A stretch of DNA of 8,443 bases from a virus (taxonomy: Duplodnaviria; Heunggongvirae; Uroviricota; Caudoviricetes): the IMG/VR virus record IMGVR_UViG_2663763282_000007; one strand, given 5' to 3'. The notes under the pieces were generated by a model that worked only from the letters and a program-made list of their open reading frames with translations, did not search any database and had not been told where the DNA came from. Below, in pieces: positions 379 through 2,464 of this stretch; the stretch's first letter is position 1; each line of letters opens with the position of its first letter. The position numbers and the translations under genes were made by a program.

Positions 379-2260
379 TATGATGGTGGCAGTCACTATC
401 GCACTGCAGCCACTGGTCAGGGTATTGCCGGTGACGGCTGTAGAATGGGCCGATCAAAATTATTACCTGCCTAAAGAATCGTCATACGGTGAGGGGGAAT
501 GGAAAACGCTGCAGTTTCAGGTCGCCATCATGAACTGCATGGGCAATGACGAGATTCGTACAGTTAACCTGATTAAATCTGCCCGTGTTGGTTATACAAA
601 AATGGTGCTTGGTGTGATCGGGTATTTTATTGAGCACAAATCCCGCAACACTCTTCTTTTTCAGCCGACGGACTCAGCTGCTGAAGATTTTATGAAGTCT
701 CACGTGGAAGCAACAATTCGTGATGTTCCTTGCCTGAAAAAACTTTCTCCCTGGCTGGGCCGGAAACACCGGGATAATACGCTCACACTGAAGCGTTTTT
801 CCTCTGGTGTGGGGTTCTGGTGTTTGGGTGGTGCTGCTGCCAAAAACTACCGTGAAAAATCTGTCGATGTGGTCTGCTATGACGAACTCTCCTCGTTTGA
901 ACCGGATGTGGAAAAAGAAGGTTCGCCAACACTGCTTGGCGATAAACGTATTGAAGGTTCGGTATGGCCAAAATCCATACGCGGTTCAACGCCAAAAATT
1001 AAAGGCTCCTGTCAGATTGAAAAAGCTGCGAATGAATCTGCGCATTTCATGCGGTTTTATGTCCCTTGCCCTCATTGCGGGGAGGAGCAGTATCTGAAGT
1101 TTGGCGATGATGCGACGTCGTTTGGCCTGAAATGGGAGAAGGGTAAACCGGAAACGGTGTATTACCTGTGTGAACATAATGGCTGCGTGATCCGTCAGTC
1201 TGAACTTGATCAGACCGGGGGGCGCTGGATTTGTGACAATACCGGGATGTGGACGTGTGACGGTCTGACGTTTTTCAGTGCTTCGGGTAATGAAATTCCG
1301 CCGCCGCGCTCCATCACTTTCCATATATGGACGGCGTACAGTCCGTTCACCACCAGGGTACAGATAGTCTGTGACTGGCTGGATGCACTGAAAGATCCCA
1401 ACGGCGTGAAAACTTTTGTGAACACCACGCTGGGCGAGACCTGGGAAGAGGCCGTGGGCGAAAAACTCGATCACCAGGTACTGATGGATAAGGTTGTGCC
1501 TTACACGGCAACGGTGCCTGTCCGGGTGGTTTATCTGACGGCGGGCATTGACTCGCAGCGAAACCGTTTTGAGATGTATGTCTGGGGGTGGGCTCCGGGA
1601 GAGGAAGCCTTTCTGGTGGATAAAATCATCATCATGGGACGTCCTGATGAGGAAGAGACGCTGTTACGTGTGGATGCGGCGATCAATAAAAAATACCGCC
1701 ATGCAGACGGTACCGAAATGACCATTTCCCGTGTCTGCTGGGATATCGGGGGGATCGATGGCGAAATCGTGTATCAGAGGTCAAAAAAACACGGTATTTT
1801 CCGGGTACTGCCGGTAAAAGGTGCCTCTGTCTATGGCAAGCCGGTGATCACCATGCCGAAAACCCGCAATCAGCGGGGTGTGTATCTGTGTGAGGTGGGG
1901 ACGGATACCGCAAAAGAAATTCTCTATGCCCGAATGAAGGCCGATCCCACCCCTGTGAATGAGGCCACATCGTATGCCATCCGCTTTCCTGATAATCCGG
2001 AGATTTTTTCGCAGACAGAGGCACAACAACTGGTGGCGGAGGAACTGGTGGAAAAGTGGGAAAAAGGAAAGATGCGTCTGTTGTGGGATAACAAAAAGCG
2101 GCGTAACGAAGCGCTGGACTGCCTGGTGTATGCCTATGCGGCATTACGTGTGTCCGTGCAACGCTGGCAACTTGATCTGGCTGTGCAGTTGCATCCCGCA
2201 AGGATGCAACTGCACAACCGACCCTTGAAGAACTGGCAGCGAAGCTGTCCGGAGGAGTGA
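350..2260 (+). CDS. A: Terminase large subunit (lambda gpA-like); 3' end frame uncertain
   Basis: ATG at 350 gives MNISEQQ..., matching the lambda gpA N-terminus (MNIS...), followed by long collinear similarity (TAVEWAD.NYYLPKES, KSARVGYTKM, FWCLGG.AAKNYREKSVDV, GDKRIEGSVWPKSIRGSTPK, CPHCGEEQYLKFGD, AYSPFTT, FVNTTLGETWE, YLTAGIDSQ, KGASVYGKP, KKRRNEALDC). The ORF track's start at 293 is a TTG upstream extension with no homology. The last ~26 codons before the TGA at 2258-2260 lose similarity (see findings). Confidence 0.93.
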   Translation: MNISEQQLSNMMVAVTIALQPLVRVLPVTAVEWADQNYYLPKESSYGEGEWKTLQFQVAIMNCMGNDEIRTVNLIKSARVGYTKMVLGVIGYFIEHKSRNTLLFQPTDSAAEDFMKSHVEATIRDVPCLKKLSPWLGRKHRDNTLTLKRFSSGVGFWCLGGAAAKNYREKSVDVVCYDELSSFEPDVEKEGSPTLLGDKRIEGSVWPKSIRGSTPKIKGSCQIEKAANESAHFMRFYVPCPHCGEEQYLKFGDDATSFGLKWEKGKPETVYYLCEHNGCVIRQSELDQTGGRWICDNTGMWTCDGLTFFSASGNEIPPPRSITFHIWTAYSPFTTRVQIVCDWLDALKDPNGVKTFVNTTLGETWEEAVGEKLDHQVLMDKVVPYTATVPVRVVYLTAGIDSQRNRFEMYVWGWAPGEEAFLVDKIIIMGRPDEEETLLRVDAAINKKYRHADGTEMTISRVCWDIGGIDGEIVYQRSKKHGIFRVLPVKGASVYGKPVITMPKTRNQRGVYLCEVGTDTAKEILYARMKADPTPVNEATSYAIRFPDNPEIFSQTEAQQLVAEELVEKWEKGKMRLLWDNKKRRNEALDCLVYAYAALRVSVQRWQLDLAVQLHPARMQLHNRPLKNWQRSCPEE

Positions 2261-2464
2261 ATGGTTACAGTCGCTGAACTGCAGGCGCTGCGTCAGGCGC
2301 GCCTTGATTTATTAACCGGTAAACGGGTTGTGTCGGTACAGAAAGACGGTCGCAGGATCGAATATACGGCAGCGTCCCTGAATGAGCTTAACCGTGCGAT
2401 CAACGATGCGGAGTCGGTTCTGGGTACGACCCGACGCCGCCGACCGCTGGGAGTGAGGTTATGA
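2261..2464 (+). CDS. W: Head-tail joining / head completion protein (lambda gpW-like)
   Basis: The 67-aa product contains LTGKRVVSVQKDGRRIEYTAAS and a C-terminal RRRR motif, matching lambda gpW (68 aa). ATG immediately follows the terminase stop (TGAATG), with GGAGG 5 nt upstream. Its last codons overlap the portal start (ATGA). Confidence 0.9.
   Translation: MVTVAELQALRQARLDLLTGKRVVSVQKDGRRIEYTAASLNELNRAINDAESVLGTTRRRRPLGVRL

Follow-up and report, generated by a model that had tools for sequence, protein, structure and literature searches.

The window, by which we mean the whole 8,443-nt stretch of DNA analysed, carries phage head genes in the order expected of the gpA family: a truncated small terminase gene lies upstream of the large terminase gene, and a W-like gene and a split portal gene lie downstream (Table 1). 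The large terminase ORF can start at TTG 293 or at ATG 350 and stops at TGA 2258-2260. Translation gives a product of 636 aa, which consists of 612 native residues followed by 24 out-of-frame residues. The Pfam search placed GpA_ATPase (PF05876) at residues 49-293 (E = 3.1e-53) and GpA_nuclease (PF20454) at residues 323-601 (E = 1e-67), and both domains are left intact by the lesion described below. The source annotation names the gene 'DNA packaging protein of prophage CP-933R', and in the annotations seen the lesion is not flagged as a pseudogene.

Table 1. Features of the terminase-portal region, with window coordinates.
Feature	Coordinates	Strand	Basis
IS3-family insertion sequence end (~1-54) adjoining the 5'-truncated small terminase (Nu1) remnant (55..378, 107 aa)	1..378	+	alignment of relatives, upstream IS ORFs
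Large terminase ORF (gpA / phage 21 gp2 type)	350..2260	+	translation, Pfam domains, exact protein in S. flexneri assemblies
Left (recipient) arm, TGTGCAGTTGCATCC, of the 15-bp inverted repeat, now perfect	2182..2196	+	repeat search, exhaustive scan, DNA folding
Mutated patch, AGTT where all intact relatives have TGGCG (net -1 nt)	2187..2190	+	alignment, difference list, allele census
Native terminase 3' end, stranded, ASRKDATAQPTLEELAAKLSGGVNGYSR and stop	2191..2277	+	codon starts ≡1 mod 3; comparison with intact relatives, phage 21 and lambda
Spacer/loop, CGCAA (5 nt)	2197..2201	+	repeat search, DNA folding, exhaustive scan
Right (donor) arm, GGATGCAACTGCACA	2202..2216	+	repeat search, alignment, allele census, exhaustive scan
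gpW-like head-tail joining protein gene, intact; the native terminase end reached 17 nt into it	2261..2464	+	Pfam gpW, annotations
Portal gene, split: 351 aa (2461..3516) and 207 aa (3431..4054)	2461..4054	+	ORFs, difference list, Pfam

In the main frame, the terminase ends in ...AVQLHPARMQLHNRPLKNWQRSCPEE and a stop (over a longer stretch, ...RWQLDLAVQLHPARMQLHNRPLKNWQRSCPEE), the stop being a fortuitous TGA just 5' of the W start codon. The sequence-only reading had pointed to rare codons in this tail, and direct reading confirmed AGG at 2201-2203 and CGA at both 2219-2221 and 2240-2242. The main-frame tail (GTGCAGTTGCATCC; a QLHPARMQLHNRPLKNWQRSCPEE-like peptide) had no match outside the near-identical S. 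flexneri allele, and no divergent relative carrying it was found. The prohead/portal-binding tail with its ...LSG... end is absent from the main frame and is encoded in another frame alone.

That alternative frame has codon starts ≡1 mod 3, which is window frame +1 in six-frame naming and -1/+2 relative to the terminase frame. It is open only from 2176, a TGA at 2173-2175 closing its earlier part, and it reads ...SRKDATAQPTLEELAAKLSGGVNGYSR and a stop (over a longer stretch, ...SGCAVASRKDATAQPTLEELAAKLSGGVNGYSR). The proposal that a lambda-like C-terminal peptide is encoded here was borne out: from S onward, 27 of 27 residues match intact E. coli prophage terminases, and 23 of the 30 residues of the restored tail match gp2 of phage 21. 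The lambda gpA C-terminus is ...LLASLQEEDGAATNKKTLADYARALSGEDE and a stop, in agreement with the earlier reading. When repaired, the window sequence translates to the native tail, which matches that of the intact relatives and of phage 21 and, less closely, that of lambda. The likeness of the alternative-frame peptide to a gpA-type tail is greater than chance would give. By descent the gene belongs to the lambda/21-type gpA family, as a C-terminally disrupted allele. The original stop at 2275-2277 does lie inside W, as had been noted, 17 nt into the gene; in phage 21 the annotated terminase (709..2637) and gene 3 (2621..2827) likewise overlap by 17 nt, so that the native tail of the window reproduces this arrangement. 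A pair of compensating frameshifts was also considered, in which native ...LSG would be followed by main-frame EE and a stop, like lambda ...LSGEDE; it was rejected because phage 21 and all close relatives end in ...LSGGVNGYSR in a single frame with the 17-nt W overlap.

Alignment with the intact relatives located the lesion precisely. The relatives read GTGC-TGGCG-GCATCC and the window reads GTGC-AGTT-GCATCC; since five bases have become four, the last 30 terminase codons have lost their frame. The change begins at codon 613 (2186-2188), where CTG (Leu) has become CAG (Gln). The sequence-only reading had placed an indel near 2176-2185 in the prohead-binding tail. The net loss of 1 nt, its effect on the frame and its position in that tail were upheld, but the site is 2186/2187-2190 and the change is a complex replacement. 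A plain 1-nt indel was ruled out, the alignment giving a 5-to-4-nt replacement with three base changes. Over 601 nt, a 4-change cluster at 2186-2190 is the sole difference between the window and E. coli CFSAN029787. Across positions 70-4960, the nearest intact relatives differ from the window by 10 isolated substitutions, the lesion cluster and one T-run indel, which puts the background divergence at ~0.2% (10 isolated substitutions in ~4.9 kb).

The replaced patch lies within an inverted repeat. AGTT at 2187-2190 is the exact reverse complement of AACT at 2208-2211 in the opposite arm, which is the same in both alleles and would be the template for the new bases. The resulting perfect 15-bp repeat with its 5-nt loop is the longest perfect hairpin repeat in the window by exhaustive scan, and it is imperfect in the relatives, where the TGGCG allele gives 5-bp and 6-bp stems around a 5x4 internal mismatch. 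Single-strand DNA folding yielded -19.9 kcal/mol for the AGTT allele versus -11.4 for the TGGCG allele. When all 1,369,856 possible 5-to-4-nt replacements in a 5.36-kb ancestral segment were enumerated, only 4, at 2 sites, produced a perfect hairpin repeat of at least 15 bp, and the observed change is one of the 4. The hairpin has no T tail and was not flagged as a terminator, and no Rfam match was found in the window. [quoted passage not shown] In such mutations, template switching renders an imperfect repeat perfect or more perfect (PMC7202029, PMC5941160), and the E. coli thyA hotspot and the lacZ QP5/QP6 reporters of the Lovett laboratory are quasipalindrome template-switch systems (PMC7202029). 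Judged from its bases, the AGTT change carries the signature of a mutation of this class.

Two alleles only, TGGCG and AGTT, were found in the genome, viral and E. coli collections scanned. TGGCG occurs in 10 loci with 95-99% identity to the window, all encoding intact 642-aa terminases, and AGTT is confined to near-identical loci (99.9-100%). No intermediate or reciprocal allele was found in these collections as sampled; a search with variable gaps in both arms returned only the same 8 loci from IMG/VR and nothing from the JGI metagenomes. The AGTT allele was found in 0 of 5426 complete E. coli RefSeq genomes. The exact 636-aa protein, named as an S. flexneri terminase, is present on at least 1000 contigs in 2068 blocks, among them AE014073.1 (Shigella flexneri 2a 2457T), in which the gene lies at 722310-724220 on the + strand. 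AGTT was present in all six S. flexneri loci read, two IMG/VR contigs are 100% identical to the window across the region, and the S. flexneri copies are 99.96-100% identical in DNA. Apart from this lesion, most S. flexneri loci have an unbroken terminase ORF, and two long assemblies (L007 and L008) carry extra paired indels in it. The numerous assemblies that share the ...LHPARMQLHNRPLKNW... tail all have the same near-identical S. flexneri allele (99.96-100%) and do not amount to independent conservation at the protein level, and close relatives with intact genes do not share this main-frame C-terminus. Given that AGTT is fixed across S. flexneri assemblies (at least 1000 contigs), the suggested check of read support is moot.

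The neighbouring genes are also damaged. Relatives align with the window only from position 70; IS ORFs lie upstream of the Nu1 remnant in L007, and HTH_Tnp_1/rve genes followed by a 107-aa Phage_Nu1 product were found in L021-L023. The portal gene is split by one extra T in the run at 3449-3454 (T6 versus T5 in intact relatives), and the same split is seen in the S. flexneri loci. The window represents the head genes of a defective, phage-21-like lambdoid prophage that is fixed in S. flexneri, and the terminase frameshift is one of several inactivating lesions, together with the IS in Nu1 and the split portal.

We consider it very probable that the frameshift arose by a quasipalindrome template switch in this defective prophage and cost the terminase its prohead-docking tail. 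The ancestor would have encoded a 642-aa large terminase ending in ...LDLAVLAASRKDATAQPTLEELAAKLSGGVNGYSR and a stop, with a 17-nt overlap with the W-like gene; parsimony across related prophages favours TGGCG as the ancestral state. The ancestral tail DNA would have held the imperfect repeat TGTGC-TGGCG-GCATCC, the spacer CGCAA and GGATGC-AACT-GCACA. A single replication error may account for the change: after copying the right arm and spacer, the nascent minus strand would have folded back on itself or switched to the other side of the fork, so that the right-arm copy served as the template for the left arm before synthesis returned to its proper template. TGGCG would thereby have been overwritten by AGTT, the complement of AACT, giving the perfect 15-bp inverted repeat. 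We infer the one-step origin and the strand from the sequence signature and from the absence of intermediates in the collections sampled. A terminase that lacks its C-terminal prohead (portal)-docking tail should fail to dock on proheads. In lambda, the gpA mutation Aam42 abolishes prohead binding although only the last 5 residues are lost (PMC4856287), and by extrapolation from lambda genetics the window terminase has probably lost prohead binding and would be expected to cleave cos without prohead docking.

Of the other explanations, stepwise decay fares best, and we regard it as very unlikely. On this view, a pseudogene under relaxed selection lost 1 nt and gained three substitutions in independent events, and the palindrome is perfect by coincidence. 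The prophage is indeed defective and carries other lesions, and pseudogenes gather mutations freely. Nevertheless, four independent changes within 5 nt are wildly improbable at the background divergence seen here, the outcome is the exact complement of the opposite arm, as in only 4 of 1.37 million replacements, and the intermediates that such a path predicts were not found in the collections scanned.

Even less likely, in our estimate, is that the arrangement is functional, either through recoding, in which a -1 shift at the hairpin restores the native tail, or because the palindrome or the tail-less terminase was selected for some function, for example as a protein-binding site or in interference with incoming lambdoid phages. 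In its favour, the exact position that a -1 shift would require is occupied by a strong hairpin (-19.9 kcal/mol as DNA), both catalytic domains are intact, and most S. flexneri loci show no other break in the ORF. Against recoding, no slippery heptamer (X XXY YYZ) occurs in the stretch from 2176, the point at which the target frame opens, to 2190 (TCTGGCTGTGCAGTT), and the two-frame layout is not conserved: the relatives encode the tail in a single frame, and the ancestors need no shift. Programmed -1 frameshifting was ruled out on these two grounds. A restored tail would moreover be without a partner, the small terminase being truncated by the IS and the portal broken; L007 and L008 carry further terminase indels, the hairpin has no Rfam or terminator-like match, and the S. 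flexneri copies are too alike (99.96-100%) to reveal selection. Domestication of the tail-less terminase by S. flexneri, for example as a dominant-negative or cos-cutting activity against superinfecting lambdoid phages, or a functional palindrome, has a comparably slim chance of being right. In most strains the reading frame shows no other damage, which leaves room for this idea, but the likeness among strains is too great for selection to be read, the gene for the partner small terminase is truncated, and further indels occur in two assemblies.

Genuine lineage divergence, which the sequence-only reading had offered as its other option, or a mosaic patch bringing a different terminase C-terminus from another phage, is extremely improbable. 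In its favour, head genes are mosaic in lambdoid phages, the window's subgroup has the tail segment SRKDATAQ where phage 21 has SREEETTR, and the main-frame stop sits neatly ahead of the W start codon. Nevertheless, the DNA flanking the 4-5-nt patch is identical to that of relatives with the tail in the other frame, and only two alleles exist in the collections scanned, which excludes lineage divergence; the new tail has rare codons and no match beyond the near-identical S. flexneri allele, and downstream the native tail can still be read to its original stop, with the 17-nt W overlap preserved. Finally, an intact terminase disguised by a sequencing or assembly error in one assembly can practically be dismissed, and was ruled out by the spread of the AGTT allele: the portal T6/T5 difference is of a typical error type and L007 and L008 show extra paired indels, but the exact protein recurs on at least 1000 contigs including the finished 2457T genome, AGTT stands in 6/6 loci and in two identical IMG/VR contigs, and a random error would not produce the exact complement of the opposite arm.

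The result bears on annotation: what thousands of S. flexneri assemblies label 'terminase large subunit' is a C-terminally frameshifted pseudogene of a prophage unable to package DNA. The locus offers a clean natural example of a quasipalindrome template switch, with both allelic states kept in related prophages, and phylogenetic or mutation-rate analyses would wrongly score this multi-base replacement as four independent mutations. The locus reveals neither a new system nor a new mechanism: as a pseudogene lesion it is ordinary, and the mutational mechanism that it neatly illustrates in nature is a known one.

As in laboratory quasipalindrome mutations, an imperfect repeat has been made perfect, the new bases exactly complement the other arm, and a multi-base change with altered length at one spot results in a frameshift; unlike laboratory-selected revertants, the change is natural, historical and fixed in a bacterial lineage within a prophage gene. 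The terminase resembles phage 21 gp2 and lambda gpA in that it scores strongly for both Pfam domains, the genes follow one another as in phage 21 and lambda (small terminase, large terminase, W, portal, protease/scaffold, D, E), and over 1900-2500 the window is ~90% identical to phage 21 DNA. It differs from both in that its last 30 codons are out of frame and 24 unrelated residues stand in their place, leaving 636 aa versus 642 aa in the intact relatives. With lambda Aam42 it shares a lesion at the extreme C-terminus of the large terminase with intact catalytic domains, although a stop codon removes 5 residues in Aam42 and a frameshift replaces 30 in the window. Compared with other decaying, IS-riddled S. 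flexneri prophages, the window shares multiple inactivating lesions and a locus fixed across strains, and it does not differ from them in kind.

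The window covers the block of left-arm head genes of a lambdoid prophage of the phage 21 type. Over positions 1900-2500, its DNA identity was about 90% to phage 21 and 99.3% to a few E. coli prophages.

Coordinates of the head-gene block and the adjoining insertion element (window positions unless a locus is named)
Feature	Position
IS3-family element / truncated small terminase	window 1-378; L007 (an assembly with AGTT) 1-2040; L021 (an S. flexneri locus) 8522-10029
Small terminase remnant, 5'-truncated	55..378
Large terminase	ATG 350 to TGA 2258-2260
gpW-like gene	2261..2464
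Portal gene, in two pieces	2461..3516 and 3431..4054
Protease/scaffold, decoration, major capsid, FI, FII, Z-like genes	after portal, in listed order

Within the protease/scaffold (C/Nu3-like) gene, a run of 160 N at 5425-5584 stands for 74 real bases (15076-15149 of S. flexneri locus L023); therefore, downstream coordinates are offset by +86 and the end of the apparent ORF 4044..5612 is artefactual. Positions 4970-5408 differ densely from the E. coli relatives (~45 differences in ~440 nt, with compensating indels at 5123 and 5128), against only 10 differences in the 4.9 kb upstream, and this patch resembles a boundary of mosaic recombination within the C/Nu3 region.

The main frame of the large terminase ends in RWQLDLAVQLHPARMQLHNRPLKNWQRSCPEE and a stop, with one AGG and two CGA codons, as the sequence-only reading had described. 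The alternative frame (codon starts ≡1 mod 3; window frame +1 in the six-frame scheme, -1/+2 relative to the terminase frame) ends in SGCAVASRKDATAQPTLEELAAKLSGGVNGYSR, and translation confirmed its stop at 2275-2277, within the gpW-like head-tail joining gene W. Lambda gpA terminates in LLASLQEEDGAATNKKTLADYARALSGEDE, which that reading had given correctly, phage 21 gp2, a closer comparison, in LAKSREEETTRPTLKELAAKLSGGVNGYSR, and the terminases of intact E. coli prophage relatives in LAVLAASRKDATAQPTLEELAAKLSGGVNGYSR; all three bear out its claim that a lambda-like C-terminal peptide lies in the other frame. The terminase gene of phage 21 (709..2637) overlaps the W-like gene 3 (2621..2827) by 17 nt, the exact geometry of the window's alternative frame with W. 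This overlap and the tails of phage 21 gp2 and the intact relatives show that the alternative frame is the native terminase frame.

Nucleotide alignment with close relatives, the check proposed earlier, placed the lesion at 2187-2190. Over 601 nt, a single cluster of differences separates the window from E. coli CFSAN029787, in which GTGC-TGGCG-GCATCC corresponds to GTGC-AGTT-GCATCC in the window; between positions 70 and 4960, the window is set apart from its nearest intact relatives (E. coli FDAARGOS_943) by 10 isolated substitutions, the AGTT cluster and one extra T (3449). The indel previously suggested near 2176-2185 in the prohead-binding tail thus stands as to a net loss of 1 nt, but the lesion is a complex templated replacement at 2187-2190, not a plain indel. 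As it stands, the terminase comprises 612 native residues followed by 24 unrelated ones, and in silico repair of AGTT to TGGCG regained a 642-aa terminase with the native tail.

AGTT (2187-2190) and AACT (2208-2211) are exact reverse complements, and therefore the window carries a perfect 15-bp inverted repeat, consisting of TGTGCAGTTGCATCC (2182-2196), the 5-nt spacer CGCAA and GGATGCAACTGCACA (2202-2216), the longest perfect hairpin repeat anywhere in the window. The sole other perfect hairpin-type inverted repeat of at least 9 bp in the window lies at 8002-8038 (10 bp, 17-nt spacer). At the 2182-2216 site, the relatives' repeat is imperfect, a 5x4 mismatch lying between stems of 5 bp and 6 bp, and single-stranded DNA folding gave -19.9 kcal/mol (z = -7.2) for the window allele and -11.4 kcal/mol for TGGCG. 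When all 5-nt to 4-nt replacements in the reconstructed 5.36-kb ancestral segment were enumerated (n=1,369,856), only four, at two sites, produced a perfect hairpin repeat of at least 15 bp, the observed replacement among them. The other site, at about 4892-4898 in the protease/scaffold gene, is unmutated here; since such a replacement there gives a 15-bp perfect repeat, it is a second latent quasipalindrome.

A pattern scan permitting any 4-5 bases at the site recovered two alleles only. TGGCG occurred in 10 loci, E. coli prophages or IMG/VR contigs, that share 95-99% identity with the window, and those with annotation have intact 642-aa terminases. AGTT was confined to loci of 99.9-100% identity to the window, namely S. 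flexneri SFBU1023, 'E. coli' ECMA0423 and two IMG/VR contigs. With variation allowed in both arms, no reciprocal or intermediate allele was found in IMG/VR and no match in JGI metagenomes; AGTT was present in 0/5426 complete E. coli genomes. The exact 636-aa product is carried by at least 1000 contigs in the protein collection (2068 index blocks), named Shigella flexneri terminase large subunit, and AGTT by all six loci fetched, which match the window at 99.96-100% identity and include AE014073.1 (S. flexneri 2a 2457T, 722310-724220); this excludes sequencing error. By parsimony, this distribution, with TGGCG in relatives and AGTT only in near-identical loci, indicates that TGGCG is ancestral and AGTT derived, heritable and fixed in S. 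flexneri. In SFBU1023 and ECMA0423 (a 4.44-Mb genome; L007 and L008), the terminase also has an extra A at 947 and a missing T at 1075, a paired +1/-1 change that may reflect either continued decay or homopolymer errors in long reads.

The terminase retains intact ATPase and endonuclease domains. The extreme C-terminus of lambda gpA is the prohead-binding domain and contacts the portal, and in Aam42, which lacks the last five residues of gpA, prohead binding is abolished and nicking intact (PMC4856287, citing Frackman et al. 1984, Sippy and Feiss 1992, Yeo and Feiss 1995). By analogy, the window terminase would be expected to fail to dock on proheads. The prophage is defective irrespective of this lesion, because the small terminase start was lost to an IS3-family element and the portal is split. 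The element (HTH_Tnp_1 and rve ORFs) replaces that start, leaving a 107-aa Nu1 remnant; the relatives' alignment begins only at position 70, and cos and the Nu1 start are absent from the prophage. The portal gene (2461..4054) has T6 at 3449-3454, against T5 in intact relatives, giving 351-aa and 207-aa ORFs. Both defects are common to the S. flexneri loci examined. The E. coli CFSAN029787 portal has a separate, independent frameshift, a G missing at window position 3717. A group II intron-type reverse transcriptase (RVT_1 and GIIM) lies in the late-gene regulatory region of some S. flexneri strains' copies (locus L018, 4432-5853; L019, 1-1167) and is absent from others. The terminase lesion is of an ordinary pseudogene kind, in a Shigella prophage that is decaying, and the gene is listed in public records as an intact terminase.

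Stepwise accumulation of independent changes at 2187-2190 is contradicted by the clustering of four changes in 5 nt against ~0.2% background divergence, by new bases exactly complementary to the opposite arm and by the lack of intermediate alleles in the collections scanned. Lineage divergence, the earlier alternative, or mosaic exchange is contradicted by flanks identical to those of the relatives and by the native tail, stop and overlap, which all persist intact downstream in the alternative frame. Programmed -1 frameshifting to restore the native tail is likewise contradicted: no slippery site occurs from 2176, where the target frame opens, to 2190, and relatives encode the tail in a single frame. 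Selection of the palindrome or the tail-less enzyme for function is improbable, and nothing supports it; the hairpin has no terminator-like or Rfam match and the gene bears further indels in two assemblies.

Quasipalindrome mutation starts when polymerase stalls inside an imperfect inverted repeat; the nascent strand is then templated by itself or by the strand across the fork, leaving a perfect or more perfect repeat, often with a frameshift (PMC7202029, PMC5941160). Judged by sequence, the templated replacement at 2187-2190 bears this published signature of template switching. Because the change affected the left arm and spared the right, the switching strand would be the nascent minus strand, which would have copied the right arm first and then built the left arm from that copy. 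The locus is a clean natural example of this well-known mutational mechanism.
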